DNA of 64,000 nucleotides from positions 9,302,001-9,366,000 of the forward strand of contig NC_087250.1 of NCBI RefSeq assembly GCF_037042905.1, given 5' to 3'. The notes under the pieces are model-generated. The model made no database searches. It was not told the DNA's origin and saw only the letters and a list, made by a program, of their open reading frames with translations. The DNA comes from Lytechinus pictus (lineage: Eukaryota). The position numbers and the translations under genes were made by a program. Shown here in pieces: positions 9,032 through 50,114 of this stretch; the first letter of the stretch is position 1; the number at the start of each line of letters is the position of its first letter.

Positions 9032-11713
9032 CTAATAGTCGATGACAAGTGGCTGATTGGGAGCTAACCGTAACTGTGAACATAAAGAGAGAGAGAAAAA
9101 AAAGGTCCAAAATAAATCAGTATGGCATGATAACATTTTATACATAATTTCTCCTCTTTCTACTACCTGATCCTCATAAATTGATTAATCAATTTGATGG
9201 TACACTCAAAGTTAATCTTCAGGATCAAATAACCCATTTTTGCATGACCATATTTATCATTAACTGATGATTCAGAACATAAAATTTAGGATATTTAGAG
9301 GTCTTTGACCTTAAAGTCATTGACCTCTAAATGTCAGCAGAAGTCAAAACTGACGTAAACTGTACATCTCAATTTAAAAACGAAGCCTTTGGTTAGGTAT
9401 AAGACTGGTGAAAATTTAACGCTTTGATACTAATTCTTAAAAGGGTTATAATCACACCAGTGTTAGTAGTTTTGTATTATCAATCATGAAAAAGATCTCA
9501 TGATGACAGCCATTTTGGATATATGCAAGTTAGAGGTCTTTCTACCACTCGGATTTTTCTGGACTTTTAGTATGTCATTTTGTAGACCTCATGAAAATGC
9601 ATGGCGGTAAAAATTAAATAAAAATATTGCAATTTGTTTAAGGGAAAACCTTATTTTCCTGGACTATGAAGCCTAAAGGAAAATCCATCAAAGATTCATA
9701 AAGTTTTTAATATTTCAATATTTTAATTAGTGACGTGATAGACGGGCAACTGCCCATATGTTATGAGATAAAAAAGGTATACATTTCATTTGTTTATGGG
9801 CCACGATGACAATTTTTTTTCTGTCAGGAGCAGGGGTAAAATGATTTTCCATTTGTTGTAATGAAGGTACGGTAAACTTTATTTTCAATTTTGGAGAAAA
9901 TTACATTTCATTGATCTTTTAAATCCATGCATATAAAGCTGCAATTGACGTCACAAATAAAAAAAAAACTACTCATAACATTGATGGGTTTCTTCAAACC
10001 TTTACCAATATATTTTACTATTGTTCATCTGTTTTTACATTATACTCTTCTGGCACGGTGAACTGGCTCTTTGAAGTAAAATTATGATTATTAAGTAGCC
10101 GAACTATACCGGTAGAAAAAAATAGATTTATCGGAGAAGTATATCTTTCCTCCTTGCGTTTTGATTTTTTTTTTTGGGGGGGGGGTGATATTCCATTGAC
10201 ACTACAATTCTCCTATTCGTATGTTCTATACAGTTTGTCCTCATCTGATATACACTATTCTTTTTTTAATGTAATAGTTGCGTCATTCAATTTTCGTATG
10301 AAAAATTACGAGTTGTGTGTACCCCGGGAAGTGATTAATATTACACAAGCGTGGTTTCCTTCTGGTTTTCTCTTCTTTCGTGCTGTCACTTAGCCTTGCA
10401 CTAGTTGCTTTCAATGTTTGTAATTATTTTAATGCACATCATATATCATTATTATTACGTCATTATTTTAGCTGTATTATGTTTACTTGTATAACAGTCG
10501 CCATTTTACCGGCATGACTTACCCATTGAGACGCTATTCTGTTACTGGGGGAGGACATGCCCTTGCAGCAGTAGATAGACCCGGCCAGAGCAGTGAAGAA
10601 ACCGATAATACTCAAAAAAGCCGAGACACAATTAGGGATGAAGAAATACTGCAAATGCAAATTAATAATGGTAATTGCAACAACATCATTAACTACAACA
10701 TTGATGATAGCAATAATGATGAGTTTTTACTGCTGATAAGATTGCCCATCTCACATGTACATGGAATGTTGTTTGTCTTGTTAACTGTTCAAAGCATTGA
10801 ATCATTTTTTTTTGGGGGGGGGGCGGGGTCAGACATGGCGTTTATGGCCGAATTTTATGAAAAATCTGCGAGAAAAAAAATTAATTTTGTGAAAGATTCT
10901 TTAGTAATATTCAGAAGATCATGTAAAATTTCTCCCCTTTTCATTTACTTCTTTTACTTTTCCTTCATTATTTTATTTTCTTGGTCGTGATTTGTTTTAT
11001 TTATCTACTTATTTTATTTTATTTTTCATTTTATTTTATTAATTTATTTTTCTTTTTTATGTCTCCTCTTTGATTTATTTCATCATTTGTATTATATTTA
11101 AGTTTATTTTGTTTCTTTTTTCTTTTTTTCTTTTATTTATTATTTTTTTCTTTTATTTTTCCCTTTTCTTGTTATTTATTTTCATCTTTTACTAGGGGAT
11201 CAGGGTGGTCCATCTGTACGCCCGCAATGGAAAGTTCATACCTCTTATTTATCATGTTTATAAGTACAGTCACAACAACGAAACTGACTCCAAACCGAAC
11301 GATATTATGTCATTGGAATTTGTTCAGTCTGGTTTTCGACTAGATCAGTGTGAGTTTTGCATTATTCGTCAAATGAGGGCCGTTGTACCACTGGCAGTGG
11401 ACTTAGTAAACATAGGAAATTGTTTTATCAAATATTTGCAGATATCATAGCTATAATCATTATTAGTAGGCCCTAGTATCATGAGTATTATTTTCCATTA
11501 TTATCGTTTCTAGTTTATAGCAATAGTAGTACTCGTAGTTTTAGTAGTAGTAATACAAATAGTAGTACTAGTATTAATATAGTAGTCGTACATGTAGTAG
11601 TATCGTGGTTTTAGTAGAAGTAGCCATAGTAGTAGTATGATTAGTAGTAGCAGAAGCATAATTACATGTATAGTAAAAATAATAGTAGTAATACCTGTAG
11701 TAGTAGTAGTAGT

Positions 11714-11744
<31 letters not shown>

Positions 11745-11745
11745 T

Positions 11746-11799
<54 letters not shown>

Positions 11800-11803
11800 G
11801 AGT

Positions 11804-11839: not shown

Positions 11840-14800
11840 TAGTAGTAGCAGTAGTATCATATAGGACCCAATGAAATAGAATTTACCAAACACACTGCAT
11901 AACACTGCCGCAAATCTGTCTCTATGTCTACAAACCAGTAGATGCAGTAGAAGAAGTACCCGCAAGCTGATAAACTTCCCACCATTGACAAGATACACGT
12001 TATCAGGAAGAACACAATCTGAAATAGCGAGAAAAAAAATATACCAGGTTCTCTGTGGTATATCTTGAACTTGTTCGACTTTAGGCATGTTAGGAACACA
12101 GTGGCCCGTATTCTGAAGTCGGGTTTAATCTAAACTCAGGTTTAAAGTTATGGATTAAGTATGAGAAGCCAAAAATATAAAAAAAAAATATTAAGTTGTA
12201 TGTTTCTTATGTTTACTGTGCTCTTTCCTGATGCATCGATGGTGAAGACAATAATCTTTTCATATTTCCTAGACAATTATGAATGATTTGAGAGCCAAAT
12301 GAGCTGAAGTATGATATCTCTACTGTTAGTGATTTATGTAACAATTGGCTGTCCATACTTAAACCACAACTTTAAAGCTGAGTTTAAGTTAAACCCAACT
12401 TCAGAATACGGGCCAGTAAGAAGATCGGTTTGCTGGTGTTTGTATCCATCTCCTGCTCATGAACTGGTAAGTACAATACTTTAAAGGAGAAATAGATTGA
12501 TTATGAATATGGTCTTATTATATATATCAATGGAAAGGTAATCAAATATTTGAGATAAATTAAAATAAGACTCAAACTGAAAGATCAACCAGCTAGCTAG
12601 AATGTTAACAAGAGCTGCACGTCCCAGCTAAATGGTTAATCTGTTAGGTTTACGTCTCATGTTACGTCTCATGTGGAAAAATAATGCTTTTGACAACTCT
12701 ATATCTCGAGGCATGATAAAATATGTGTTTTACATATAATTTGCATACAATTTGTATAAATTTACATTGAAGATTTATTCATACTCACCAATTCTCAAAA
12801 ATCGACCTACAAGTAAATATTAAGTAAAATAAGACCCAAATAAAAAAAAAGGCCTTTAAACATTATTCAGAGTGAGATATGGTGAATTATTATATTATTT
12901 TTAGCTTATTTTGGATTTTAATTATGAAATAAGAATGATATTTTTGTGTAGATAGACTGTTTAACCACAGCACATGTATACACTCATACTATACATCATA
13001 AGATGGTAAAATGGTCTATCTTCGAGATAGACCATTTTACCATCTTACCCCAATGCACAACATTCTTCAGCGATTTTCGAGATAGACCGTTTTACCATCT
13101 GACGGCCGTTTGACGTGGCGGTAAACTGGTCCAACTTGAAGATACACCATTTTACCATCAAATCTGAAGGAAAAATACAAAAAAGTACCAAGATAGCGGA
13201 AATTATTTATAAATCAAGACATGATGGGATTTTCTCGATAACACCATTGGAAAGAGCGCCCTCACATTACAAGGAAAGTGAATTTACATCAAAAAGTCAA
13301 ATTTTCGAGTTAGACCGCTTTACCATCTGACGGCCGTGCCAGACAGGATTTCAGAAAATCATATCGTCATGTCTACAACTCTTAAAGATGGCAAGGTCTC
13401 GGATCTCTTCATGTCTGCATCCCATGGGAGAGATAGTCAGATGGCATTCCACCAAACAGGTTTCCACTAAACTAGCTTTAGGACTGTAATAAAAACGGGG
13501 AGTTGCACCACAAATTATCATCCCAACACAAATTTTCACCCCTCACAACTGGGCGAGAATTCGTGCGAAAACTGACACCACAAATTATCACCCCTGCTCA
13601 AATTGTCGCCTAAGTTTTGACGACATTTTGTGGAGGAGGGGACACCACAAATTGTCGCCCATATCACTTAACTTACTGTCTCCATGAACACACACACACA
13701 GAATAGGTCATGTAGACTTCGTAAGAAACCATGTTTCTCTGGGTGTGAGGGTATGTGTATGTGTGTTAATTAACAACACATCAGTGAAACTGACAGTCAC
13801 TGTGGTATCTCACGTTTGTGACGGATTTTGGACTACTTTAAAACGGGTTTGAGACGATTTTGAAACTACCTTTTGGTCTATGTAGCATTTCACCTATGCA
13901 CACTTCGTTTACCGTCCATTTGAGCTATCACCACTTGGTCGCTCTCAGTAACAAACTGGTAATAGACTAAATATTCATTTGGGCATTACACGAAAATGCA
14001 ATTTGACCATTTGGCTATTAGAGGAATTGGTCAAATTAGACCAAATCATTAGCAGACCAAAATGGTTCAGCCCATGTGCTATTAGACAAACAGAGAATGT
14101 TGGACCAAGTGGATAAAAGCTGAATTTTCCACGGGCTTTGCTGCTGTTCTCTGTATTAGCCTCCCGCCCTCCCCCAAAGGTAAATTTCCAGTTGGTCTAA
14201 ACCCGATTTGACTAATGGCTGTTTAGCTTTATCCTATAAACGGTCTATTTCCATTTCATCTACAACCAGTTTACCTCTTGGTCTAATTGTCGTTTTGCCT
14301 ATTTACCATTCCGTCTAATTTACATTTGGTCTACATGCAATTTTTATTTGCTCTAATATCTAATTGGTCTAATACCACTTGGTCAAATTCTGTAACAGAC
14401 TGGAAATATTCATTTGGGATTTAGACGAAAAGTTGATTAGACCATTTGGCTATTCGACGATTCTGCAATTTTACCGAGTGGTCATGAGACCAAGCAAGAA
14501 TTCGACCAAGTCCTATGCATCAGATCAAGTGGAAGTTACTTGAGCAAATGAGTTTAGCTCATATGGTATAAGGTATGGTAGAGGTGTTATGGATAAGTCT
14601 CTGGAATTGCACAGCAAGGTCCGGGGTTCAAAATCCACCTTACCACTAGCGTCCTTTGGCAAGGCGTTTATCTACATTTGCCAGTCTTCACCCAGGTGTA
14701 GTAAATGGACACCCGGTAGGAAATAATTCCTTGAATGCTCGAGTGCCCCGATCAGGATAGCCATGCTAAAGCCAGGGTAATAGTATTCAGTGCTAAGAAA

Positions 14801-15201
14801 AATGTGTATTAAGCGCTATATAAATATTGCATATTATTATTAATATCATTAGACGATCAGGGGAGCGATTCATGAAAGGACTTATCGAACAAAACGTCCG
14901 ACAGGTTCAGTTTTACCCGACAGTTACCATAGTAATGTTGGCTCATAGCCAATCAAAATCAAGTAAGGTTGTCAGATCTGACAAAATGTTGATGAAACGC
15001 TCCCCAGAGAGGGAACTACAGCGTAGGGGCTGTCACATGTGTCTCTGTGATGTAATTGCTCCCCAGTTTGAACCACTGCTACTGCTAGGCAAAGTAGATT
15101 TAACTCCCCCCCCCAAAAAAAAAAAATAATAATAATAATAATAAATAAATAAAATAAAATAAAATAAAATAAAAATAAATAAATAAATCAATAAAATAAA
15201 A

Positions 15202-15237: not shown

Positions 15238-18200
15238 AATCATAATGATAAATCAATAAATAATAATAAAAACAATACACACATAAACACCCACCCACCC
15301 ATACCAACACAACAATCACCTCTAACACAATGCACAAAACCATATTTACCACAAACGACACACGCCAGGACGCACATACGCTACACACCAGACTGGTGGT
15401 TGAAGACAATTTGTGTAATGGGGACAAAAATATGTGGTTCTAAGTTTCTTTTTGCCGGCACAAAATGGCACAATATGCTTAATAAATGAGACCGGTATAT
15501 GTGCAGCACATATTGTCGCGAGTCGACAATTTGTGCATGGGTGGCAACTTGCGGTGTCAGTTTTTGGCCAAAAAGTCCAGACTAGAAGAGACATAACCTC
15601 GTTCTTTTATATATACAATATTTTTCTATGGTTTCTTGTCGATTCGAGGGTGCTGATTACGATTCTGAATGATGGCACGCGTGTATAAACCTTGACCATT
15701 TCCCGCAAATTGGCAAAATCCAATATGGCCGCCAAAATATGCAAATTAAACATGGAAATCATAAAATTGCCCTCGCATTAGCCATAAATGCATGTAATCG
15801 TGAGACAGGAGTTAAATACCCTCTGAAAAAAAATGATTTTTGACAAAACGTTTATTTTCTTGATATTCAAAAGTGCTACCAGTGTTAGAATTGCAAAGAG
15901 ATTATTACAACCATATTGAATTAGTTGTGCTCAACCAGTACTCATTGCAATATACCAAATTATGTGTGTTATTCTATCAGTACCGACGGGTGTCAATTGT
16001 AGCACCAAGAACGTCGCCATTTCAAGACGAGATATAAATGATGCATAATTGTATATCCTTCGCAATCTGGCATGGATGGAGTTGATGTCGTCCGCTTCAC
16101 ATACGTTCTAATCTCACTGTTCGTACAAAGTAATGAGTCCGACTTAAAAAAAAATCTTTCTCAAGGCATTATGAAAAACGAAATGATTTTCGATTATACA
16201 ATGACCCTAGATCGTATACATGTACGTTCTCCGTAAGAATTCTTTCGTATTCTTTCGTAAAACTTACCGCCATCCTACGATTGATATTGTCACAAGATTG
16301 CCGTACGTGAAACTCACGATAGTCATGAGCAGGGGCCGCGGAGCGGGGGGGGGGGCTGGGGGGCGTCATCCCCCCCAGTTTTTTCCAAAATCGTGTAGAA
16401 AAACGTAAAGATTACCATATGATTGTGTGATTTTTTGCATGGTCAGCCCCCCCCCCCCCACTTTGAAAACCGTTCCGCGGGCCCTGATGAGAGAATTTAA
16501 CTCAATAGTTGTTAATTGTGTACCCACTACTAACGAGTTTTTGCGAACACCTTACAAGGGATCGTTTGTAAGAGTGCCGAACGATTCTTCGTAAAGCCTA
16601 AGTTTTTTATAACGCCGTAAAAGCCCTCTATACACATCAACCGAAGGCGTTTTTACGATCATTTAAAGAGTTAAAGGCTGTAAGAATTAGTATAGACTCT
16701 CAAACCTACAAAAGCTCGGGTGGTTATTTGGTTATTACTGCTGGCGTACGTTTACCGGAAAAAAATATTGGATAGGGACCATTGATCAAGCTGCGAAGTT
16801 ACGAACAATCTACGAATGGTCTGCGAACGCTGGTTTCGTGTAGCATTCTTGAGAATATCTTCAGAAGTGGTCTAATAATCATTTTTACGGCGTTCGCAGC
16901 GGTTTCTAATGGTATCTGTGACCAAACAATTAAGAAAAGATAAAAGAAACATAATTACCATGCACATGTTCCTACACGCTGTTCCAAATCCGATGACTGA
17001 AGTTAAAAGATAAAGCTGGATAGAACGAAGAAAACATTGATTTATAAAAGAGTCGGAAAAAAATACGACCTTGAAAACTTTTAGGGAACTTTAATGTCGG
17101 TTCCTTTCGCATGTACTTCCAATAAAAACGAGAGGGTCGTTGATAGTAGAAATGTGGACATTGATGATATAGAAACAATGACACATGATGATCGTGATGG
17201 AGATACAGATATCAACAACAGCAATAATAACAGTAATAATACTGGGTAATAATAATGATTAATTTGATAATAAAAATAACAATACTTCTTTCCCCGGGGG
17301 GGGGGGGGGGGGGGCAGTCGAATATATTGCTGTACACACGCGTAACCAAAACAACGCGTTTAAAGGGGATTTTTTTCAGTTTTGGACGCGGTCCGCGCGT
17401 GGACTCGTTAAGGGTATCAAAAACACCGATTTTCAAGGAAAAATTGTGGTTTTGAAAGACTGGTCAATGGTCAATCGCGGGGTCAGACTTATTTAGGGTA
17501 CGTTTTCCCCTAAAACTTTGTTTTAAAGACTTGCCAAACTTGTTTAGGGTATGGTTTTTTTCCCAAGCTTGTTCCCCGAGGTCATATTTTGGCGACAACT
17601 TGTTTAGGGGCCAAAAGGTGTAAATAAAGCCCGCGAAAAACTTGTTCAGGGGGTCACTTTGCACACAGGGAAAAACTCGTTTAGGGGGTGTTTGGAAATT
17701 CATCAGTCACGCGTGTGTACAGCAATATATTTGACTGCCCCCCGGGCTTCTTTCAATACTGCTACCGTTACTAATAAGAATAACGTTGATAATGATAATG
17801 AAGATGATAATGATAATTGATGAAGATGATGATGATGATGCTGATCACGATGAAGGTTATGACGACGATGGTGATGATGATGATGATAATAACAATAATA
17901 ATATTATTATATTTGATACCGATTATTGCGATAAACTATCATTATCAAGGGAGGTGGGGGAATACCCATTTGCTCCAAGTCGTGTATATATATTAGCAAC
18001 ATCTTGTAAAAGGGCTCAAAAAAAATAATTTGACTTGAACTTACACGTGAAATTTCATAAAATGCATTAGACTTCTATTATATTATTAAAATAAGTTTTG
18101 CAGGGAGCAAAATATTGTCGTAGGTACCGTAAGGAATAATAAAATTCGAATACAATAATTGTCGTATAACACCAGATTATGGTTCGGGGTACAATAAAAA

Positions 18201-20743
18201 AAAACAGCTTAGGTTTGAGCATAAAAATATTAAAGGGAATTTAGTATAGCAAATTAACATTGCATCGAGACAACGTCGGAATAAATCAAAAATGTATACG
18301 CTATTGAAATCATATACATGTAGGTATGGAATAAAAACATAAGAATGCATTGTGGAACAATTCATCTAAAATATGTTAAGGAAACAATGAGGGGAGAAGA
18401 AGGTGAAGGAGGAGAAAGAAGAAGAAGAAGAAGAAGGAGGAGGAGAAGAAACAAACGAAGAAGACGAAGAAGAATAAAACGTCAGTCTTCAGTTAAGAAT
18501 AGCCCCTAAAAAATCATCTTTTAGCGGCAAATTAAGGATGTCGATGAGAATATCCCCCCCCCCTTATTGGCGAAAGCAAGATCCGCCCCTGTACCCCCCC
18601 CCCCCCCGTAAGCTAAGGATTGAGGGAGAAATGGGAGGGGGAGGGGGTAGTTGGTATACTAACTTACCCCTCCGAGAGCGAAGGCGCAGATCTGATAGTA
18701 TAATATGGTAGATGGGGGTATCGCACCTGCGATATATCCAACACCTCCACAAACCGCCACCCCTATGGCGTATAGCAATAGCATCACAGAGACACATGTG
18801 ACAGCCCCTACTCTGTAGTTCCCGGCATAGCCCTCCCGCTGGTAAAATTGTCACGAAATGAAGGTGAAAAAAAATTAAAAGTTAAAAAGGCAAAAGATTA
18901 GATTATTTTTTTTTGGGGGGGGGGGAGACTTTGGGGGTAATATTGATATTATGTTTCAGACAGCACATACATGCTTGACTGCCGATTGGATGAATGCGCT
19001 TCACGTGGCATTCGGAGGAATCAGCTATAGCACACACTCAGAAACGTGTACGAGACCCGTGCAATAGTCGAGCAATAGATCCGGTGTAGCTGCAGATTTT
19101 GTTACACCCGCGGATACTTCGGTTTTGTAGAAATCTTAATTGTTCATTTACTTCAAATGAAATTCATACATAGGCCCTACATAATATAGAAAATATCATA
19201 CAAAATAATAGTAATACTACTATTACTATTATAATAATAACAATAATACTAACAAAGCGCCTCGGAATAGACATGTCTAGATAGATGGCGATATGCAAAT
19301 GCCTATCATTATCATTATTATTTTCATTCAAAATAATGTAACAAATTAATTGCCGCTGTGAATACAAAAATCAAATAAAATTGTAGACAAACATAGCAGA
19401 TAAATTGTATCAGGACAGAGACATAATCCAAAATCGTACAAAATATCATTTTTAGTGTAGATTAGTCTAGTCCAGCAACAAATCGTGTGTTGTAGGCCTA
19501 TACAACAAAATCAATATTTTGTCATTCATGCGACCGCTCGAATTTTGATTGCAAGGACAACCAAGGATTATTAATTCCCACTATACTTTTACAGGAAACG
19601 CCTGGTATATTTTGTTTTAAATCCCTAGTTATATAAAATGTAGACCCATTTCTTGATGATGTGTAACCAATCTAGACCAATTATAATGTTCCCGGACCTA
19701 ATCTTAGGGCTAGGCCTGTTCAGCCAATGTTAACCAATTCCAGGGTTGGCTGCGCGCGGTTTCTACCCAACTCCAGTAAATGAGGAGTCCACTGCGCTGC
19801 GCCGCTGCATTTTCACCCAAGATGTAAATTGTAACGCGTATAGGCGAACAGAATCGGATCGTGACTCACTTTGCAAAGTATGCTTATTCACAATTTATTA
19901 ATCCTATATGAATGGCCGTCATGGAATTTTATTTTCTGCATGATAATCTAGACCTAATTCCATACTGACTTTCCAGATTCTAGGTAATTTGAGCGAGAGC
20001 TGGTATTTTTTATAATTGTTATTTATGCTGCGGATAAACGGAACGGATCTGGATCCGGTTAAGTTAGGGGACATGCGCAGTTCAACGTTGAGATAACATA
20101 TCGAGCATGAGCATGCCCAGTTCTCCCCATGAAAGTGTATGAACGGAGCTAAAAGAAAACTATACGGAGCTATTTGGAGTGATGCGTTTTCCTATTGAAA
20201 GTATACTCTGTCACATGATAACGAACTGACCAATCGTTTACCCAGAATATTCATGAATATTCATAAGAGGGATACGGTTAATTTTATTCCGTGTTTTATT
20301 GCTATCACATTTCATACCATGTTTTGGGTAATATTGATATTAGGGCCTACATTTCATTTCATGTTTTGAGTATTATTGATTTGAAATTTCATATCATGAT
20401 TTGTGTATTGTTGATATCAAATTTTTATTACATATTTTGTGTAAAATTGACATATAATACTTTTCCATGTTTTTTGTATCATTGATATGAAATTTTATTT
20501 CATCATTTGTGTATTATTGATATTAAATCTTATTCCATGATTTGTGTTTTATTGATGATACAAATTATCACATGATCTACGCATAATTGATTTTAAGTTC
20601 ATGTTATGATTAGGTCTTGTTGATGCTAAAATTTATTCCATGTTCTATATTTTACTTAGATATTTTATGTTTTGTGTATTATTGATATTAAATATAAAAA
20701 CACTCACCTGAGGATTATCTTCCACTATTGTAACAGGCTGCAT
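9032..20743 (-). CDS. Gene A: spliced four-transmembrane MS4A/CD20-like protein, ~187 aa
   Basis: Exons (minus): 20743-20708 MQPVTIVEDNPQ (context gtcgccATG); 18838-18668 REGYAGNY...YQICAFALGG; 17015-16959 LYLLTSVIGFGTACRNMCM; 12018-11887 IVFFLITCILS...RQCYAVCL; 10648-10523 YFFIPNCVS...GSIYCCKG...SQW; probable last exon 9073-9032 LRLAPNQPLVIDY*. All introns GT-AG and phase 0; exon sizes match genes B and C. The last exon is less certain. Confidence 0.85.
9670..10075. mobile_element. Decayed copy of Kolobok-like MITE family 2
   Basis: Shares gaaaatccat, tgacgtcacaaat, caaacctt and ggtgaact segments with 36741-37243. Confidence 0.55.
11520..11860. repeat. (TAG/CAG)n compound microsatellite in an intron of gene A
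   Basis: Visible tandem triplets. Confidence 0.95.
12103..12414. mobile_element. PIF/Harbinger-like MITE
   Basis: TIR GGCCCGTATTCTGAAGT.., 3-bp TSD AGT. Near-identical copy at 34857-35167. Confidence 0.88.
12950..13337. mobile_element. End fragment of a CAC-terminus (CMC/Chapaev-like) element with repeated TAGACC.TTTTACCATCT motifs
   Basis: Motif at ~13028, 13083, 13143 and 13312. Ends ...CATCTGACGGCCGTG. Perfect hairpin at 12999-13047. Confidence 0.55.
13870..14540. repeat. Degenerate short-period TTGGTCTA / TAGACCAA arrays (decayed foldback-type MITEs, two copies)
   Basis: Runs of ttggtcta-like units followed by inverted tagaccaa-like units. 13930-14040 resembles 14370-14480. Related fragment at ~11270-11405. 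Confidence 0.55.
14575..14842 (+). mobile_element. tRNA-derived SINE, decayed
   Basis: B-box-like ggttcaaaatcc, core tcctttggcaaggc, cacccaggtgtagtaaatgg, tail aagcgctatataaat...tattattatt. Confidence 0.7.
14858..15007. mobile_element. Short MITE, second copy of 7530-7692
   Basis: caggggagcgattcatgaaagga ... gatgaaacgctcccc. Confidence 0.78.
16330..16486. mobile_element. Short GC-rich MITE
   Basis: TIR CAGGGGCCGCGGAGCGG / CCGTTCCGCGGGCCCTG. ATGAG direct repeat on both flanks. Confidence 0.75.
17293..17746. mobile_element. MITE with CCCGGG termini and 8-bp TSD
   Basis: TIR cccggg(g)n-cagtc(g/a)aatatattgctgtacacacgcgt. TSD CTTCTTTC at 17285-17292 and 17747-17754. Internal ttgtttaggg repeats. 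Confidence 0.88.
20290..20695. repeat. AT-rich ~35-40 bp minisatellite
   Basis: About 10 diverged units with core tgtgtattattgatattaaattt..tttcatg. Confidence 0.8.
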
Positions 20744-41593: not shown

Positions 41594-41819
41594 TAAAAAA
41601 AAAGTGTTCACATGATGGAATCTCTTACTGCGATTCACAATGTTAAATTTGAAAAAAAGTCAAGTGTGATCTTCGCACTGTGAAGATACATTCAATACGT
41701 AATTTGCATTGTGAGCACACTATGTTATTTCCATTTTTTTTAAATATTTATATATCTATTTGTTTATCAATGTATTCACTTTTATCTTCTTTTTTTTTTT
41801 TGGGGGGGGGGGGGGGACG

Positions 41820-42660
41820 TCGACCTAAAGGTGATGCCTAATTTGAAGACCTTAGGTCCATTTTTCATCAAATTTGATTTTTTTTTTCTTTGTCTCAGTG
41901 TATAGATTTTTAATAGCTCTATAAGATGATACCAAAGAAAAGTTGAAATTCCCATTAAAAAGTGATTTAAAATGGCAAAGAAAATCACTTTTTTTTCGAA
42001 AGGGGTTAGGTCCATTCCAGTTTAGTTGCAAAAGGGGTTAGGTCCACACAGAATTTTTTGGAAAAGAATATCTAAAAAAATATGAAGACAGGTAGATTTA
42101 TTTTATACCCAATTTTATGTTCTCATGGTAGGGTATCATGAAAATTTAGTTTCGCATTAGAATATTGCAATATAGGAGAATAAAAAAATGATTTTCTTGG
42201 AATGGACCTAACCCCTTTTGCAAACAAACTCTTCTAAAGAGCTCATTTGTCAAAAGGGGTTAGGTCCATTTTCATAAATTTTATTGTTTTCTGTCTCAAA
42301 ACTTCTAAATTTTTAGTCGCTGTGATGAAAACAAAGAAAATTATAAATTTACATGAAAATGTAAATAAAAGTGGCAAAGAAAAATCACTTTTTTAATCAA
42401 AATAGATTTGATTCATTTCAGTTTACTTGCAAAAGGGGTTAGGTCCAACAATGATAATATTTAAAAGAATACAAAGAAAAAAAATGAAGATAGGTAGATT
42501 TCTTTTATACCCAATTTTATGTTCACATGATAGGGTATTACATCATGACAATTTAGTTTCTCATAAGAATACTGCAGTTAAATAAGTGAGAATAAAAAAC
42601 ATGGGTTTTCTCGGAATAGTCTAATGTGGGCCCAACCCCTTTTGCAACTAAACTCTTCAT
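41820..42660. repeat. Tandem dimer (~410 bp period) of a TIR-like element with AAAAGGGGTTAGGTCCA motifs
   Basis: Motif at ~41999, 42031, 42252 and 42432; inverted at ~42203 and 42633. 42030-42235 aligns with 42430-42658. Confidence 0.75.
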
Positions 42661-42875
42661 TTATGGGCAACGTAATTATTAAAAAAAATAAAGTAGGTAA
42701 CAAATTTGCAAGCCCCTGCCATCGTCGACTCACACCCACCCACACTCTCCCGTGAACATATAGGTCTACACAATGTTCATTTAACAGACTTTATCTTTGA
42801 TTTATTATAATCTTCTGATGAATAATATACACCTATTTTCTTTTAATATAGATCCGCAACACAAAGGAGTATATC

Positions 42876-45800
42876 ATGACATCGCCACAAGTGCGCATCG
42901 TACGCGTGACGTCATCACCGAGGGAGGTAATTCAAAATTCATGTTACATTAATTCAACCAATCACGGAACAGGGATCATCTTCTGGGGATATTAATCAAT
43001 CCTGAACAGTATAATTTGTATCTTTCGTTTGTGTCGTATTCTGTTTTTTTTTCGTGGAGTCCCAATCCACTGGGAAAATGTCGAATTTTGATTTGATTTG
43101 ATTTGATTTATTTATTTCCACATTCCAATAACAAAAAGTATATACAAGTGTAATCCTTTTTTCTTAGCATAACATAACAATAAGCAAATGACATAATTAA
43201 TAACATATGCATATATACAATCTCACAATCTAATTGGAATATATTTATACCTGATAAATTTCTTTTTTTTTATCATTAAAACAAATAGCAGAAAAAAATT
43301 ATAGATATACGTATATCGACATAATACATTTTGAAATATGGGAGACCTTCATCTTAAGCTTAGAGCTTGAAAATTATAAAGGCCTCAAAAGGAAAGGGGA
43401 AGGAAAATCAGACAAACAGTGCAATAAAAGAGACTTATCTTTTATTGCACAAAATAATAGGAATATTACCAAAAAAGTAGATAGGGAAAGAAAAATTAAA
43501 ATGAGGAAGTTATAATCATGTTTTCAATAATGCTGTTGATCCATGACCATGCATTTATCTTCCCTCCAATATAATGTATGCGTTTGTTCTTCTTACTCTT
43601 CCTATACATCATCTGTACGTATTTTTTTTTCGTTCGGTAGGCGAGTGATAGAGGCTTAACATCATAACAATCACATGGCCTTGTCCAAAGGCTAATTTTG
43701 GGCGTTAGTATGTTACGCGATAACCACCAATATGACGTACTACTACTAGTACTACTACTACTCACTAGCGTACCTACGGGGGGGGGGGGGGGGGGCAGAG
43801 TCACAACCCATGCAAGGGACATATCCCTGCCCCCCCCCCCCCTGACGATTCTTGAAGACCTTCTTTTTTTTTTGGGGGGGGGGCTTGTCAATTTTTTTTC
43901 TGGTACGAAATCCTTTATTTGTGGTTGAAGACCCTTTTTTTTTTTTGCTTGTCAATTTTTTTGGCGGACGAATTTGCCCCCCCCCTGTGGAAAACCCTAG
44001 GTACGCCACTGCTACTACTACTACTACTACCACCACTACCGCTTCTGCTACCTACTACCACCACTACCGCTTCTGCTACTGCTGCTGCTGCTTCTACTAA
44101 TAATACTACTATTACATCTGATACTCTGCACTCTAAAAACATATTGGGTGAAAGTGCTCCAAGAGGGTAATTGTGTGTCCAACCAACATTCGGCATTTAT
44201 ATTTATCAAGTGTGATGAAAATGTTGCTCATTCTAAAGTAATTGCTGCTTATTTTTTAACCTTACTGGACGATATGCTTCCCGCATTGGCCAAAATACTG
44301 CTCCAAATTGGTAGGACACATAATTACCCCCGTGGTGGTACAAATTTTACCCAATATTTTTTTACAGTGTAGTATTGCCTTAATTTTCCCTTGCATATTA
44401 CATAAAGGACAATTATCACAATCAATACTACAATTTCCGACATATTTTTTTGTCAGAAATCATTTCAAACATTTTTTTTTTATTCAGAACTCATGCTGTC
44501 CCGGACGGTATCCACAATACAACGCGAGTTTGGGTTTCTCTTCCGGGGTGGTGCAGGTCATTTGTGGAGTGTGTACACTTCTGCTTGGGGGCATCTTTTT
44601 CGCATTGGTCTTGCACGTCATCGACACAGGTGCAGGAGTTTGGTGTGGGGCGTTCGTAAGTACTTCCTTTCAAGCTAATTGGAAATCCCTGCAACACCCT
44701 TTCCTCCCCCAATGTTCATATTTGTGTTTTCAGTGTAAATTAGTTACTTGTGCAATACGACGCCACAATGGGTTACTGTGGTTAAAAAAACACCACATAG
44801 GAAACTGCTGGCTGCACAGTGCACAACATTTTGCAAACGATGACCTCACCAAATATCCTGAATATCATCGCATTTTATTATGCAGGATCCCTCTTGTCCT
44901 TCTTGTGGGGCGAACCCTGGCTGTAAGATAATCGTCCGAATCCATCCGCAGCCTTTACGGCCATTTTAACCTCTACGATAATTCATATGTGTGAACCCCC
45001 CCCCCCCTTAAAAGAATAAAAATAATAAAGCTGTAGGCCCATTCGAATGGACTTTGTTGTGCTATTAGACTGCGGTGTAAATACAGTGAATAGGTGTTGT
45101 GTGCTGGAAATGCAGGGCAAAGAATTCCTTTACGAAGAAGATCGCAAGGCCACTGTACGAAATTGTATGATCTCTGTACGATTTCATACGATATATGTCA
45201 AGAGACCAAGAAAATTACAAGGTGACTGCACGATTCCCGTATGATTTCCCCACAAGCTCGTTGCGGCCTGTCCCTAAGGCCCTCGGTTAGGTAGAGACCA
45301 TGGCACGATGCTCGTTGCGAATACGTACACCGTCGATAGAAGTCAACATGTGTTTCAGGAACTTGAAATATGTGTAAACCAATCGCAACATGCTTCTATC
45401 CTTTTAACATCTGTTAAAGGGGAAAATGGGGGAAAACTATTAGGACAGCTTTTAGAAAATAATTTTTGATATTTTTTTTAACTAGATATTCATTCCAACT
45501 GGAGTTATCGGCATCTTCACCAAAGGGAAACGAACGGGATTGGTATGTATTACAAAGTTTAAACCTAAAATTGTAGAGAACGAACAAAAAAATGTGACGA
45601 ATAATTCTGATATTAAAGAGAAACAGAAATTGATCTACACTGAACAGATACACACAAAAGCAAACAAACATAAAAAGACATACTCTTCGAAAAAAAAACA
45701 TTTTGTGGGTAGATTCGTTTTTCCTACGCAATAGTCTATTATTATCACCCTCTTATAAAACTAATCATTAGTCATAAAGAAAAAAGAATAATACCAATTT

Positions 45801-48800
45801 AACATCAAAATACTTTTTCCTTACAATTTCTAGTAAAGATGATTTAAACAGTTTTGTTTATTTATTCGTCTATCCATAAATTTTTATATTCATTCATTTA
45901 CCTTTTTGTTTATTCATGTTTCACCAAGAAAGCTTTAAAGGTTGATCTTTCATGAGGCCCTGGATAATGAACAATACAATAATACAAAATTAAGAACAGT
46001 GAATGGGGGATAGCCTAATACAAAAATTAACCAGACTATTAAATTTCGATAAAATTATGTATAAAATGAACTTTATCAACACCTGTTATTAATATTATTA
46101 TCTAAGTCACCATACTAATAGTATACAAATAATGAATGTTTATGAGTGCAATGGACATAATACTTCATGGGGTGACAGAATACATGAGTTGAATGGATCA
46201 TTATTTCATCTTTCACCGAATGATTAATTCTGTCCATTGCACGAATGAAAAAACATTCATTATTTGGTTTATGACACCTAAAAAATTTTTTTTTTTTGTT
46301 TTCATATGAAATTTATGAATTTCAATGCAAAACATGCTCATATGCAGTCATTAACATGCGCACTGCTGGTGCCCGCAGCTGCAGTTTCGGCGCTCGCGTG
46401 CAATGGACAAAATCGTATGGATCCAAAATTGCACGATGAATGAATCCAAAATTGCACGGTTGTTGACGTCATTGCCAAATGGGCTGAATGAACAAAATCA
46501 AAGAACCAATCAAATCACAAGGATCTATCTAGGTGTCATATAATTTTGTTTAATTTTTCTTTTTGGTTCAGATCATCGCTTACCTTGTTATGTGCATCAT
46601 CTCCTGCTTTGCAAGTCTAGTAATGGCTGCCTTTATATTCTACTGGACCTGGTATTGGGGTGTGGAATGTTCGAGACCTTTAGCATCCTGTTCAAACGTC
46701 ACAGTAAGAACTCGTTGCCAATTTAAGGAGTACCCCGCGCTGAAATGAAAAATATGTAATTTGAACAGAAAGAGTAAAATCAGACAAACAAAGCACTGAG
46801 TATTCCATCAAAATTGGACAAAAGATAACAAAGTTATATGTCACATTCATTATTTTGTTTTAACATTTTTTTTAATTAGTTTTTTGGACGTGATATTGGG
46901 GATTAGAATGTGCGAGACTTTCAACCTCCTGCTCCAACGTCACAGTAAGAACTCGTTGCCGATTTAAGGAGTACGCCGGGCTGAAAACTATGATATGAAC
47001 ACAAAGAGTAAAATCAGACAAACAAAACACTGGAAATTCCATCAAAACTGGACATAAGATAACAAAGTTATGATTGTCACATTCACTATTTTGTTTAAAC
47101 AGTTGGTTTTTTTTTATTAGTTTTGTTACTTTTTTTCTCTCTGCATGCCCTGATGAATGTGCAGTGAGTAAGCGCGTGGTGTCTCATTCCCATTTTTTAA
47201 ATGAAATTTTAATTTTGTCCTCCCAAAATTCATATAAATTATATAATTGATCACTGTATGAGATAATGCTGAAAGGTATTTTTTATAACTTACAGCATAT
47301 ACATTAGAAGGGAGACTTTTTTCATACATAATTTTGATTTCATGTAATAGAAATAACAAATTACATAACGCAAGAATGTGTATGATAAGGACCATTTGGA
47401 TGACCACGATGCGAGGACATCCTAGGTTCGTTGTGTGTCCTCAATTCGAATGCAGAATTCGTGTGTATAAATCATCGGTTGCTAGCGTGGCAAAGCGCCC
47501 TCACACGCCCAATTATCCCCCTTATTTATACTATCCATTGTTTGTAATATTGTGTTTTCAGATCTACCAAGCTATTCAAGCTCTCATTGGGATTCTGATG
47601 ATCATTGATTTTGTGGGGGCTGTTATGGGGGCACATGTATGTTGCCAGGTAGTCCCGTCAAGTAAGCCAGCGACACGCAGGAACAACGCGGTAAGCTACA
47701 ACTGTGTTTTTTTTTTCTTGGTATATTCTGACGTATAGGCATAGACATAAACTTAAAGGACAAGTTCAACCCAACAAAAAGTTGATTTGAATAAAAGAGA
47801 AAATCCAACAAGTATAACACTGAAAATTTCATCAAAATCGGATGTAAAATAAGAAAGTTATGACATTTTAAAATTTCGCTTAATTTCACAAAACAGTTAT
47901 ATGCACATCCTGGCTGGTATGCAAATGGGGAGAAAATGACATCATCCACTCACTATTTATTTTGTATTTTTATTATATAAAATATTCTCCACGTTGTCAA
48001 GTGATACAACGATTGATTCATCCCTGAGCATGTGTAATTAGCATTGTTTAATACTATATGGTTCAGTCAAGTTGGTCCTTATTGTCAAATTTATAGAAAA
48101 AAATGAAATATTGTATAATTCTAACTATAAAAAAAACAAAAGAAATAGTGAGTGATGGACATCATCGACTGACTCACCTAGTTGTGCATATCACTGTTTT
48201 GTGAAAAATAAGCGAAACTTTAATATGTCATAATTATCATATTTTAAATCCGATTTCGATGAAATTTTCAGCATTATGCTAATTTGATTTTCCTTTATTA
48301 TTCAAGTCAGCATTTTTCTGGGGTGGACTTGACCTTTAAAATGTTTTAGGCAAGACGAGCTAGTCACCATGATATTGTTTGAAATATTTATCATGATTAT
48401 TCTAGTTTAAAGAAAAGGAGTATTGTCATGCTTAACCTTTCCCCATCGGCATAAATTTAGGGATTTCTTAATATACACAGATACAACTTTTTAATGGAAG
48501 CGACGACGACGATGATAATCATCAAATAACAATGACGATCATCATCATAATTATAATGATAATGATGGTGATAAGATAATGGTCGTAATTTTTAATGATA
48601 ATAAGTCTGCTATTAGTACCAGCAAAAAGCGATTAATATGATTATGACGCTAATCATAATCACGACAAAGAATGACTTGTACACTATTAAGACAACATCC
48701 ATTATAACATTAATAAAACTACCCAATGATAACCTATAGAAAGAACCAGAAACAACACGACCATACCATATATATGTTTCGTAATTCGAATGCATATTTC

Positions 48801-50114
48801 CTCAAAATTTGATAACCAGTCCACTTGATTAAGACCTCTGTTACTATAATTATCGTATCCAACTCGTTAGCAGACCTACAATTCTTTTTAAAAAGTTCGT
48901 ACTTTTTGTAGTTATTTCCATACAAAAAGAATAAAACATATACATGATCAAATTTTAACAAATCGTCAGACAAAAACATGGAGGATGGCCCATGTCAGCG
49001 GTATTAGCAGAATACCACTGTTTCTCCAAGGGGTCCTTTGAATAAACTCTTCGAAAAGAATAATTCTTCTTCTTCTTCTTTTATACTGTAAAAAAGTTAA
49101 GATCTAAACTTGAATATAAACACAATTTTTCACTGAGATCACACAGTGGACACATTTCATGTTTCAGTTAACCCTGAACTTCAAATCTTGTCTTCCCTTT
49201 ATTATATATATAAACCCTATCCACCCTCTCTAGTAAAAACCCTATCCACTCTCTCTAGTTTTAAAAAAGAACTCAAATCATATATAATGTCCATCAAATG
49301 TTAAAATGTCAATGGTTCCTGTGTTACAAATATTTTAATGACTCGAATTTTGCATGCCTTCTGTGTTCTAATATGTATGATTTATGTAATGTCTTTACTT
49401 TGTATGTTTTTATCACTAGTATACACATGTTTTGTTTTTATGCTTTTTACGGCCCCTTTTGTTACCAGCTTTTGCTGAAAGGGCACCCTATTGAAATATT
49501 GTTTAATAAATAATAAATAAATAAATATTCCACATTCATGCTGCAACTCGATTTTCACAAGTTGTGTATCACTTCGAAGCTTAGCATGTGCTTTTCAAGC
49601 TCAAAAATCTCAATATTGATTTGGATCGACATACTTTTTTTTGGAGGGCGGGGGGGGGGCAGGTCACAGTTCGTATTCTACTAATTACGTATTGTCATCA
49701 TTATTGTTGATATCATTTTATATACGCAGGTGCATTATGAACGGCGGCAACAGCCAACAAGCAAGAAAGGTAGGTTTATAGTCTACGGATATGCTATGCT
49801 TGTTTGCAGTTAAAATTAAATAATTCATGTTGTGTTTGAGGGACAGAGTGCTTATTATTATTTTTATTATTATTATCATCATGGTATTGATATTATAAAA
49901 AAAAAAAAAAAACAATATAAAGATATTATTTCGAATTTTTCATTATTTGATATTTTTTTTTTTTAATGTTGGAAGTGAATCCAAGAGAGGAATAACAAGG
50001 TAAGGACTAGTTGATATTTTGTTTTACCTGTTAAGTTATCGTTTCAAAATGGAAGAGAATGTGAAATATAGCAAACACGTGTATCTCCCTCCAGAAATGG
50101 AGGCAAATGAATGA
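42876..50114 (+). CDS. Gene C: spliced MS4A/CD20-family four-transmembrane protein, ~198 aa
   Basis: Exons: 42876-42926 MTSPQVRIVRVTSSPRE; 44488-44655 NSCC...GVVQVICG...TGAGVWCGAF (CD20-type G..Q...G and G.W.G motifs); 45486-45542 IFIPTGVIGIFTKGKRTGL; 46572-46703 IIAYLVMCIISCFAS...ECSRPLASCSNVT; 47562-47690 IYQAIQAL...VCC...NNA. Probable tail exons 49730-49769 and 50095-50114 (VHYERRQQPTSKK-EMEANE*). Candidate 5'UTR donor at 40730. Confidence 0.88.
43763..44011 (-). mobile_element. hAT-like MITE, inverted copy of 4700-5045, inserted in a (CTA)n tract
   Basis: CACTAGCGTAC ... GTACGCCACTG with CTACTACT on both sides. Confidence 0.85.
44129..44369. mobile_element. CACTA-like MITE
   Basis: cactctaaaaacatattgggtgaaa / tttacccaatatttttttacagtg, plus inner inverted repeat gggtaattgtgtgtcc / ggacacataattaccc. 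Confidence 0.78.
47757..48335. mobile_element. Kolobok-like MITE family 1, second copy
   Basis: TTAA flanks at 47753-47756 and 48336-48339. Colinear with 5838-6436. Confidence 0.86.

Follow-up and report, generated by a model that had tools for sequence, protein, structure and literature searches.

A 64,000-nt stretch of Lytechinus pictus DNA (GCF_037042905.1, contig NC_087250.1, forward strand, positions 9,302,001 to 9,366,000; hereafter the window) contains three intact paralogs that belong to the CD20-like (MS4A) superfamily. They are labeled A on the minus strand and B and C on the plus strand, and D denotes a related gene upstream of the window. Each of the three has six or seven small exons and encodes a protein of 186-200 residues, and AF2 models of A and C are those of four-helix membrane proteins. 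Our preferred reading, to which we assign a probability of roughly 0.6, is that these superfamily members most likely serve as non-enzymatic auxiliary membrane subunits and that A, B, and D form a divergent branch confined to sea urchins.

Gene models and exon plan

A scan for AG/GT borders recovers all twelve core exons of A, B, and C at canonical AG...GT sites in phase 0. Their lengths of 171/168/168, 57/57/57, 132/129/132, and 126/129/129 nt agree exactly with those claimed in an earlier sequence-only reading of this DNA. Each gene also has a short exon that carries the ATG and one or two short 3' coding exons. All internal acceptors in the three genes are AG and all donors are GT, and the frame is open in 25 of 25 coding exons of A, B, C, and D. 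The joined coding sequences of A and C are identical, letter for letter, to the L. pictus RefSeq proteins P0007 (LOC129263404) and P0002 (LOC129263403), both annotated as 'uncharacterized', and the intact open frame of gene B encodes 186 residues, of which 12 differ from its L. variegatus ortholog P0006. The models are therefore not chance assemblies. The features are listed below in window coordinates.

Gene A
20708..20743, minus strand: coding exon 1, ATG plus 11 codons (MQPVTIVEDNPQ), GT donor (tblastn 100% to P0007; splice table)
18668..18838, minus strand: exon 2, 171 nt, phase 0, end of the N-terminal tail, TM1, short outer loop, and first half of TM2 (splice table; tblastn; AF2 helices)
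16959..17015, minus strand: exon 3, 57 nt, phase 0, encoding the second half of TM2 plus the inner loop (tblastn; splice table)
14996..15085, plus strand: inverted broken fragment like the 171-nt exon, with an in-frame stop, inside a gene A intron (tblastn 56% to P0007 residues 9-42)
11887..12018, minus strand: exon 4, 132 nt, phase 0, encoding TM3 plus outer loop 2, which contains C-x3-C (tblastn; splice table)
10523..10648, minus strand: exon 5, 126 nt, phase 0, TM4, juxtamembrane CC, and start of the C-terminal tail (tblastn; splice table)
9032..9073, minus strand: last coding exon, LRLAPNQPLVIDY plus the stop at 9032-9034 (tblastn; splice table)

Gene B
32692..32724, plus strand: coding exon 1, ATG plus 10 codons, GT donor (tblastn; splice table)
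33035..33202, plus strand: exon 2, 168 nt, phase 0, from TM1 through the first half of TM2 (tblastn; splice table)
33528..33584, plus strand: exon 3, 57 nt, phase 0 (tblastn; splice table)
34691..34819, plus strand: exon 4, 129 nt, phase 0, TM3 and loop with C-x3-C (tblastn; splice table)
36355..36483, plus strand: exon 5, 129 nt, phase 0, TM4 and CC (tblastn; splice table)
38167..38211, plus strand: last coding exon, 14 codons plus stop (tblastn; splice table)

Gene C
42876..42926, plus strand: coding exon 1, ATG plus 16 codons (splice table)
44488..44655, plus strand: exon 2, 168 nt, phase 0, from TM1 through the first half of TM2, carrying the part that matches Pfam CD20 (AG/GT scan; Pfam)
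45486..45542, plus strand: exon 3, 57 nt, phase 0 (AG/GT scan; splice table)
46572..46703, plus strand: exon 4, 132 nt, phase 0, TM3 and loop with C-x6-C (AG/GT scan; splice table)
46885..46953, plus strand: broken copy of the 3' half of the 132-nt exon, with an in-frame TGA, from a 241-bp tandem duplication (46644-47101)
47562..47690, plus strand: exon 5, 129 nt, phase 0, TM4 and CC (AG/GT scan; splice table)
49730..49769, plus strand: exon 6, 40 nt, AG/GT (splice borders)
50281..50306, plus strand: last coding exon, 26 nt including the stop (splice borders)

The interval originally marked for the cluster begins at 9032, within the gene A stop codon, and ends at 50114, which is 192 nt before the end of the gene C stop at 50306, so that the last coding exon of C lies past it. 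The genes had been described as hidden. This does not hold for A and C, which have RefSeq models named 'uncharacterized protein'; only for B did the collection searched yield L. variegatus orthologs and no L. pictus protein, and B appears to be without a protein model in this species. The statement that no single open reading frame reveals the genes is fair, since eight ORF pieces searched against Pfam gave a sole CD20 match at E = 0.35 (11.4 bits). The assignment of one TM helix to each exon holds only approximately, because the second half of TM2 in the A model falls on the 57-nt exon.

Pairwise comparisons link the three proteins. BLASTP aligns A with B at 41% identity (E = 3e-38), A with C at 31% over 105 aa (E = 1e-10), and the B ortholog with C at 23% (E = 9e-7), and hhalign joins the A/B clade to the C clade with a probability of 94% (E = 1.2e-7). 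The analysis confirms that A, B, and C are real genes with one common exon plan. Another CD20-like gene, on L. pictus contig C19, has TM2-TM4 within one exon; the plan is therefore not universal.

The RNA check covered B and C with about 6 in 100 of each of three rRNA-depleted runs (X7-X9). None of the 15 joints listed, of 110 read joints, is a predicted intron of either gene, and the RNA-seq confirmation of junctions that had been proposed was not obtained from these runs. Read depth is 0 to ~0.3 in bins made up only of exons and unique intron. The bins that are covered are repeat-derived, with reads 95-99% alike and ~0.9 of the aligned reads continuing into unlike sequence.

Assignment to the CD20-like superfamily

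The proposal that these are divergent CD20/MS4A-like tetraspan genes in an invertebrate is supported by profiles, predicted folds, and language-model neighbors. Against the Pfam CD20 model (PF04103, 'CD20-like'; gathering score 27.9 bits), the gene C protein reaches 27.4 bits (E = 4.1e-6), 0.5 bit below the cut-off, and both its L. variegatus ortholog P0001 and another L. pictus model, P0004, reach 28.5 bits, above it. Gene C and its orthologs lie close to this cut-off (27.4-28.5 bits), and the family profile matches CD20 at 5e-11 to 6e-10. A and B fall below Pfam detection, none of six A/B-clade proteins matching even at E <= 10.

A profile of A, B, and C retrieves 72 proteins at E <= 1e-3 among 1.84 billion representatives, and 55 of the 70 relatives scanned against Pfam CD20 match at E <= 0.01, 35 of the 70 at the cut-off. 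In hhalign comparisons, the A/B-clade profile aligns with 24 Pfam-positive invertebrate relatives at a probability of 99.1% (E = 4.9e-19, 145 columns), and the C clade aligns with the same 24 at E = 1.4e-29. Among PDB sequences, these 24 relatives alone reach Fc-epsilon-RI beta at E = 9.5e-17 and CD20 at 6e-10, and a 59-sequence family profile reaches them at 7e-16 and 5e-11. The link from A and B to vertebrate proteins is transitive, through the Pfam-positive invertebrate relatives. Because a profile of A and B alone has no match among PDB sequences at E <= 10 and neither protein matches Pfam, their membership rests on profile-profile and fold evidence; they are a divergent branch of the superfamily on that evidence, not Pfam-defined members. 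Among the 30 ESM Atlas clusters nearest to A, 26 carry PF04103.

CD20 has a disulfide in the TM3-TM4 loop. Like CD20, the urchin proteins have two cysteines in this loop, as first noted, spaced C-x3-C in A and B and C-x6-C in C, and a CC motif is likewise present after TM4 in all three. The loop cysteines occur in 43 of 59 aligned relatives and the CC motif in 45. Unlike in the aligned CD20 chains, the urchin loop is very short, at ~9-19 residues.

Relatives found with the A/B/C profile already bear MS4A names in public annotation, including 'membrane-spanning 4-domains subfamily A member 8' in Ciona and, in hemichordates, '8-like' (Saccoglossus) and '4A-like' (Ptychodera), whereas the urchin genes are all named 'uncharacterized'. 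A 2022 Ciona preprint (bioRxiv 10.1101/2022.08.15.492342) also treats invertebrate relatives as MS4A, and its accessible text describes clustered Ciona genes that have undergone lineage-specific duplication and vary in their outer loops. Our literature search found only PMC2826416 on sea-urchin CD20-like genes, a 2010 survey whose accessible part uses a sea-urchin sequence only as an outgroup. The genes described here add to a family already recognized in other invertebrates and do not constitute a novel type of system. The profile and fold results place echinoderms firmly among the invertebrates with MS4A relatives, and the branch of A, B, and D is so divergent that Pfam misses it.

Predicted fold

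The AF2 models of A (pLDDT 85.3) and C (81.7) each contain four long helices, and in both the first outer loop (helices 1-2) spans ~5 residues and the second (helices 3-4) ~9. Foldseek places Fc-epsilon-RI beta chains in the top three positions for both models (TM 0.66-0.72 by target length; for the best chain 0.70-0.72, with E 6e-4 to 8e-4), with sarcospan and CD20 next. VIA-align against Fc-epsilon-RI beta gives Z = 16.7 for A and 16.9 for C over 142-147 residues, and sarcospan follows at 14.6-15.8 (rmsd 2.5-2.9 over 140-144 residues). CD20 is a weaker structural match than Fc-epsilon-RI beta (MS4A2), with TM 0.31-0.48 and Z 10.2-12.9. Unrelated bundles score Z = 14.9 (TTYH1), 14.4 (a designed maquette), and 13.6-14.1 (a uroplakin tetraspanin). 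Four-helix bundles score high generally, and with a margin of 2-3 Z units over unrelated bundles the fold evidence is not decisive by itself.

Two other tetraspan families were considered and rejected as candidates. Two truncated A-like models give the only Pfam Tetraspanin (PF00335) matches, with E = 0.13 and 4.3, and a tetraspanin PDB chain reaches only E = 0.065 with invertebrate-relative profiles. Foldseek TM scores to CD81 and CD53 are 0.25-0.41, versus 0.66-0.72 for Fc-epsilon-RI beta, and the urchin proteins have no large second loop and no CCG in the helix 3-4 loop. Claudin/PMP22 proteins are defined by outer loops that form a beta-sheet ectodomain. Neither urchin model has a strand of three or more residues, the first loop is only ~5 residues, and the scores of Claudin-15 (Z = 11.3) and TARP chains (10.7-12.1) fall below the MS4A2 matches.

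The broader alternative, that the proteins belong to a different tetraspan family (tetraspanin, claudin/PMP22, or synaptogyrin/MARVEL) and resemble CD20 in composition only, is largely refuted and has a negligible probability. It would accord with the accessible part of the 2010 survey (Zuccolo et al. 2010, PMC2826416), which took this view of invertebrate 'MS4A-like' sequences and held that invertebrates are without MS4A genes, with the weak Pfam Tetraspanin matches, and with the uroplakin Z score. However, the invertebrate-relative profiles match Fc-epsilon-RI beta with E = 1e-16 and CD20 with 6e-10, far beyond the 0.065 of the tetraspanin chain, and the low CD81, CD53, and Claudin-15 scores, the small second loop, and the lack of beta strands also argue against it. 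The sequence-only reading had named claudin and tetraspanin as competing folds; the best solved match is MS4A2, followed by sarcospan.

Genomic clustering and divergence

The genes are clustered as claimed, although their number is not three. Gene D is a fourth intact gene with six exons at C6:9260432-9289808, and D, A, B, and C all lie inside 92 kb. Further related loci occur at 9.68, 10.05, and 10.11 Mb of the same contig. This makes a run of at least four genes, and 0.85 Mb of the chromosome carries seven or more related loci. The core-exon borders and ATG-exon donor of D were checked, and its last exon is placed by peptide match only. The RefSeq model of D is truncated, and those of the relatives P0010 and P0005 are truncated or skip an exon. 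Clustering of paralogs, a trait of the MS4A superfamily, thus occurs in L. pictus, and the cluster offers a small, genetically approachable MS4A-like gene set in a laboratory sea urchin.

The A/B/D branch contains only Lytechinus and Strongylocentrotus members in an NJ tree of 24 sequences (99% bootstrap) and is a clade separate from the MS4A-like genes of other invertebrate deuterostomes (Ciona, amphioxus, and hemichordates). The proposed lineage-specific expansion stands for this branch; gene C has a 76%-identical S. purpuratus ortholog, which indicates long-term conservation. Between A and D, dN is 0.120 and dS is 0.094 (dN/dS 1.28), with 0.150 in the intron flanks, and pN/pS is 1.26, which is not significantly above 1 (bootstrap 0.75-2.64). 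Amino-acid changes affect 13 of 31 outer-loop codons versus 15 of 96 TM codons (Fisher p = 0.005), and pN/pS in the outer loops is 1.77. TM2 and the inner loop have 2 changes in 29 codons. Recent duplicates in this divergent, sea-urchin-only branch appear to accumulate protein changes roughly as fast as neutral sequence would, and fastest in the outer loops.

A pN/pS of 1.26 with pN close to pS even in the TM helices is also the pattern of a decaying duplicate. Some copies, above all the young pair A/D, could be drifting into pseudogenes that have open frames and no current function, which we regard as improbable. The A-D dN/dS would fit such drift, as would the lack of RNA reads on the B and C exons in three runs, the broken exon copies in introns (14996-15085 and 46885-46953), and the truncated or exon-skipping RefSeq models of P0010 and P0005. 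Arguing against it are the open frames of all 25 coding exons, the AG/GT internal borders of A, B, and C, the 174 of 186 residues that B keeps relative to L. variegatus, the S. purpuratus ortholog of C, and the nearly unchanged TM2 and inner loop of A/D.

Mammalian MS4A proteins of necklace olfactory neurons are non-GPCR chemoreceptors, and sea urchins are known for expanded innate-immune and chemosensory gene families. The urchin proteins might themselves be ligand-binding receptors, either non-GPCR chemoreceptors or immune recognition molecules, whose fast-changing outer loops contact the ligand. This alternative is unlikely, even though the genes are clustered and recently duplicated and the A-D changes are enriched in outer loops. 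The accessible text of the Ciona preprint (bioRxiv 10.1101/2022.08.15.492342) describes the same pattern together with palp expression for 29 MS4A genes, and that of PMC11026480 reports CD20 as an olfactory receptor. However, both models have very small outer loops, the A-D pN/pS does not exceed 1 significantly, loops are under less constraint than any other part of a membrane protein, and the B and C exons drew no reads in the three RNA runs. It is similarly doubtful that the A/B/D outer loops are under diversifying selection for recognition, as chemoreceptors or as specificity-conferring partners of immune receptors; if they were, MS4A-type sensing would move back to the base of the deuterostomes.

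Proposed role

An auxiliary-subunit role is most likely because the proteins have short tails without a recognizable signaling motif and tiny outer loops; a stand-alone receptor role seems less likely. Reading of the tail sequences revealed neither an ITAM nor any other motif. By eye, K and R residues occur in the tails and in the TM2-TM3 loop, and this charge pattern suggests that both termini are cytosolic. A disulfide between the two loop cysteines may pin the short TM3-TM4 outer loop, and the CC at the cytosolic end of TM4 could be a lipid-anchoring (palmitoylation) site. The proteins would pack against other receptors or complexes in the membrane and modulate how these assemble, traffic, or signal, in the manner of Fc-epsilon-RI beta, CD20, and sarcospan.

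A channel role is an old proposal for CD20. Homo-oligomeric pores or channels are a very improbable alternative here, suggested by the general four-helix bundle architecture only; channel subunits, some of them de novo and some natural, do appear further down the fold matches. Against them, the entry titles of the best structural relatives, Fc-epsilon-RI beta and sarcospan, describe subunits of hetero-complexes, and no polar or charged TM lining was seen on reading the sequences by eye.

Sarcospan, of the dystrophin-glycoprotein complex, is the second-best structural match and is a small tetraspan that is a subunit of a larger membrane complex. Its likeness to the urchin proteins is structural, as the 59-sequence profile finds no sarcospan sequence match in the PDB at E <= 1. 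Mammalian MS4A2 is both the best solved structural match and the best PDB sequence match, and it shares the four helices, short outer loops, and subunit-like build. The urchin proteins are only 13-20% identical to it. They are also shorter, with 186-200 residues versus chains of 243-245, and their predicted cytosolic tails of ~20-35 residues have no ITAM-like Y-x-x-L pair that could be seen. The urchin CC after TM4 lies outside the stretch that aligns with the solved MS4A2 chains.

Gene models and exon structure

The window has the base composition of AT-rich eukaryotic DNA (GC 0.31-0.41), and stop-to-stop ORFs combined with a hydrophobicity scan show that both strands hold short open stretches containing transmembrane-like segments. 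The sequence-only reading described three CD20/MS4A-like tetraspan genes (A, B and C) that no single ORF reveals. This description holds: the sole CD20 match among eight ORF pieces scanned against Pfam is not significant (E = 0.35), and the genes consequently had to be assembled first. A scan for open in-frame pieces with AG and GT borders recovers exactly the exon sets that had been proposed.

Core exons of genes A, B and C recovered by the AG/GT scan (window coordinates)
18668-18838, minus strand: gene A, 171 nt
16959-17015, minus strand: gene A, 57 nt
11887-12018, minus strand: gene A, 132 nt
10523-10648, minus strand: gene A, 126 nt
33035-33202, plus strand: gene B, 168 nt
33528-33584, plus strand: gene B, 57 nt
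34691-34819, plus strand: gene B, 129 nt
36355-36483, plus strand: gene B, 129 nt
44488-44655, plus strand: gene C, 168 nt
45486-45542, plus strand: gene C, 57 nt
46572-46703, plus strand: gene C, 132 nt
47562-47690, plus strand: gene C, 129 nt

The first and last coding exons of all three genes were located by tblastn, and in the splice table all internal exons begin in phase 0 and are flanked by AG and GT. Once joined, the coding sequences of A and C translate with zero differences into the proteins P0007 and P0002, and gene B is an open frame of 186 codons that differs at 12 residues from its L. variegatus orthologue P0006. The span first reported for the cluster begins at the stop codon of gene A (9032) and ends at 50114, before the last exon of gene C (26 nt, 50281-50306). 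A tRNA scan across the window found none.

In a search of the protein collection that used a single translated exon from each gene as query, the gene A exon is a 100% match to 'uncharacterized protein LOC129263404 [Lytechinus pictus]' (P0007). The gene C exon leads to a 200-aa protein cluster that includes an L. variegatus orthologue and XP_063956615.1 (P0002), publicly named 'uncharacterized protein LOC129263403 [Lytechinus pictus]'. The gene B exon retrieves only two L. variegatus proteins (95-96%), P0006 (186 aa) and P0005 (168 aa), and no L. pictus protein for gene B was found in the collection by this exon search. The genes had been called hidden, but two of the three are already annotated, though nameless; only gene B appears to lack an L. 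pictus protein model. Given the identity of A and C to RefSeq proteins and an open gene B close to P0006, the three are, as judged from sequence, real gene models conserved between two species. The P0005 model (L. variegatus LOC121416600) is without the 57-nt exon. Loss of this exon would delete half of TM2, and P0005 may reflect an annotation error or an isoform that is not productive.

RNA reads and repeats

Spliced reads had been proposed as confirmation of the predicted junctions. Reads from three rRNA-depleted RNA runs labelled as this species, and from one further run of unknown kind, were compared with positions 32500-50500, which cover genes B and C; roughly 6% of each run was sampled. 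This confirmation was not obtained for B and C: none of their predicted introns is among the 15 joints listed out of 110, and at this sampling no RNA reads were found on their exons in the three runs. Depth is 0-0.3 in bins that hold only exons and unique intron. Covered bins contain repeat-like reads that are 95-99% alike, and about 0.9 of the placed reads run on into unlike sequence. The predicted junctions of A, B and C are based on splice signals together with RefSeq identity or conservation, not on reads.

A repeat family within a gene C intron (47750-48340) is very abundant in these runs, with a depth of up to about 89 per 600-nt bin, a strong strand bias and numerous loose ends at positions 47813, 48298-48301 and 48338-48340. 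Copies of part of this repeat are recognizable at the peptide level at 5763-6077 and 46872-47183. On the minus strand, ORFs as long as 876 aa at 2-2273 and 53947-59415 resemble, by eye, the endonuclease and reverse-transcriptase genes of non-LTR retrotransposons.

Family assignment

Pairwise BLASTP relates A to B (41% identity, E = 3e-38), A to C (31% over 105 residues, E = 1e-10) and the gene B orthologue to C (23% over 172 residues, E = 9e-7). The Pfam CD20 model, which had been suggested as a check, gives a divided answer. Gene C scores 27.4 bits on PF04103 (CD20-like), just under the gathering score of 27.9, and its L. variegatus orthologue lies above it at 28.5 bits, but six A/B-type proteins have no CD20 match even at E <= 10. 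A profile built from A, B and C finds 72 proteins at E <= 1e-3 in a search space of 1.84 billion cluster representatives (13 at <= 1e-10 and 5 at <= 1e-30). The Pfam scan of these matches took 70 of the 72, the remaining two having been scanned beforehand with the A/B-type proteins; 55 of the 70 match CD20 at E <= 0.01 and 35 reach the gathering score.

Because this profile includes C, the A/B-type proteins were tested separately. In hhalign, an eight-sequence A/B-clade profile aligns over 145 columns with 24 Pfam-positive relatives, none of them taken from A, B or C, at a probability of 99.1% (E = 4.9e-19). The C clade aligns with the same relatives at E = 1.4e-29, and the A/B and C clades align with each other at 94% (E = 1.2e-7). 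Against PDB sequences, a five-sequence A/B/C profile reaches CD20 at only E = 3.6-6, and larger profiles were therefore needed. With the 24-relative profile, E values are 9.5e-17 for Fc-epsilon-RI beta (MS4A2) and 6e-10 for CD20; with a 59-sequence profile they are 7e-16 and 5e-11. Since an A/B-only profile finds nothing among PDB sequences at E <= 10, the link of A and B to the vertebrate MS4A proteins is transitive. An ESM Atlas feature search with gene A, which we treat as a lead, agrees with a CD20-like family (PF04103 on 26 of the 30 nearest clusters, top score 0.91). Assignment of A, B and C to the CD20/MS4A-like family is supported.

Relatives in Strongylocentrotus and Diadema are named 'uncharacterized', and those in Lingula and Owenia are proteins without a name. 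The Ciona relative is called 'Membrane-spanning 4-domains subfamily A member 8', and the Saccoglossus and Ptychodera ones are labelled '8-like' and '4A-like'. In a neighbour-joining tree, a weaker method than maximum likelihood (24 sequences, 171 columns, 200 bootstraps), A, B and their relatives form a clade (99%) to which only Lytechinus and Strongylocentrotus contribute, and gene C groups with its S. purpuratus orthologue (100%). The three genes add new members, in part unannotated, to a known family, with a divergent urchin-only branch among them.

Zuccolo et al. 2010 (PMC2826416) describe MS4A or MS4A-like genes as absent from invertebrates and use an S. purpuratus sequence as outgroup. 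In a survey of metazoan membrane proteomes (PMC5620054), the CD20-like family is one of the clusters found metazoan-wide, and a 2022 preprint on Ciona (10.1101/2022.08.15.492342) reports 29 clustered MS4A genes that vary in their outer loops and are expressed in the palps. Our literature search on sea-urchin or echinoderm MS4A/CD20 found nothing besides PMC2826416, and searches on MS4A exon structure and on sarcospan with MS4A found nothing usable.

Predicted fold

AlphaFold2 confidently models four-helix bundles for gene A (pLDDT 85.3, pTM 0.77) and gene C (pLDDT 81.7, pTM 0.74) from 59-sequence alignments. A claudin or tetraspanin fold had been named as the alternative for these proteins, and the best matches of the predicted models are MS4A-type and neither of these. 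For each of the two models, the first three Foldseek hits in the PDB are Fc-epsilon-RI beta chains (E = 6e-4 to 2e-2, TM 0.66-0.72 by target length), followed by sarcospan and CD20, and the tetraspanins CD81 and CD53 reach a TM of 0.25-0.41. In a Foldseek-independent search of 48,161 representative chains, Fc-epsilon-RI beta has Z scores of 16.7 (A) and 16.9 (C), compared with 14.6-15.8 for sarcospan, 13.6-14.1 for a uroplakin tetraspanin, 11.3 for claudin-15 and 11.2-12.9 for CD20. Unrelated bundles also score high here (TTYH1, Z = 14.9; a designed maquette, Z = 14.4). Because long helical bundles give high scores with many proteins unrelated to them, the predicted fold of A and C is supportive of the MS4A family, not decisive.

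Extent of the cluster

Genome searches, which were run exon by exon and thus give lower bounds for paralogue counts, extend the cluster beyond the window.

CD20-like loci outside the window (contigs C6 and C19 of the assembly that holds it, G000)
C6:9260432-9289808 (loci L006, L002-L004), plus strand, upstream of the window: gene D, A-like, intact
C6 9.677-9.683, 10.050-10.057 and 10.108-10.115 Mb: further A/B-clade loci, from the genome search
C19:5473041-5473535 (L005 2041-2535), plus strand: distant CD20-like gene, from the genome search

The genes had been described as a cluster of three. The clustering stands, but the number does not, given the fourth gene D and the three additional loci on C6. 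Gene D has exons of 36, 186, 57, 129 and 126 nt plus a last exon, all open. In its RefSeq model, P0010 (111 aa), translation runs past the donor of the 57-nt exon, which truncates the protein. D (plus) and A (minus) lie tail to tail, A and B (plus) are head to head with about 12 kb between them, and B and C (plus) are in tandem. More distant CD20-like matches occur on other contigs. In the C19 gene, a single unbroken exon encodes TM2-TM4 together with a Cys-rich segment behind TM4, an exon plan thus different from that of the C6 cluster.

Rate of change and broken exon copies

Synonymous sites are saturated between A and B, A and C, and B and C (pS 0.78-0.85), so no ratio is given for these pairs. 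For the young pair A and D, the Nei-Gojobori method over 161 codons gives dN = 0.120, dS = 0.094 and a ratio of 1.28, with a bootstrap interval of 0.75-2.64 for pN/pS. Of the 31 outer-loop codons, 13 carry amino-acid changes, compared with 15 of the 96 TM codons (Fisher p = 0.005), with loop and TM borders chosen by us from the predicted model. Protein change between A and D thus proceeds at about the neutral rate and is fastest in the loops, a pattern that fits diversifying selection on the loops and weak constraint on a young duplicate equally well. Simple decay of the gene copies is opposed by the coding exons of A, B, C and D, which are all open with canonical AG/GT at every checked splice border, by the 174 of 186 residues that gene B shares with L. 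variegatus, and by the 76% identity of gene C to its S. purpuratus orthologue.

The A-D synonymous divergence, which in the 171/186-nt exon falls to 0.022, does not reach the substitution-only divergence of the flanking introns (0.150 over 1257 nt of 300-nt flanks). Gene conversion limited to the exons, or constraint at the synonymous positions of these short exons, could account for this.

Two broken exon copies lie in the window. An inverted fragment similar to gene A's 171-nt exon occurs within an intron of that gene (14996-15085, plus strand), with 56% identity to P0007 residues 9-42 and an in-frame stop. The other arises from a 241-bp tandem duplication (46644-47101, plus strand; 1.9 copies, 84% matches) that takes in the 3' half of the 132-nt exon of gene C, the donor of this exon and the beginning of the intron. 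At 46885-46953, the copied exon part reads TGA where the gene C exon encodes Trp, and its peptide matches the L. variegatus exon (81%) better than the L. pictus exon (67%).

Conserved features and possible role

The paired Cys of the TM3-TM4 loop and the CC after TM4, originally noticed in A, B and C, prove to be family-wide. Among 59 aligned relatives, 45 have CC at the end of TM4 and 12 more a single C, and 43 have exactly two Cys in the TM3-TM4 loop columns. The loop residues may form a disulfide and the CC may be palmitoylated. By analogy with the closest solved relatives, A, B and C would most likely serve as small palmitoylated tetraspan subunits that partner other membrane proteins. No ITAM-like motif was seen on reading the short tails of A and C.

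The last residue is Tyr in A, C and D and Phe in the L. variegatus gene C orthologue; Tyr is also the commonest C-terminal residue among the 59 relatives (12/59). The N-termini of A, C, D and relatives have a common M-x-P-V-x-I motif. Both the terminal Tyr and this motif could be candidate sorting signals. The relatives retrieved by the A/B/C profile include P0080 (567 aa), in which a CD20-like part (27.7 bits) precedes a tyrosine-kinase domain (228 bits); this hints that the CD20-like fold might serve as a membrane anchor for signalling modules.
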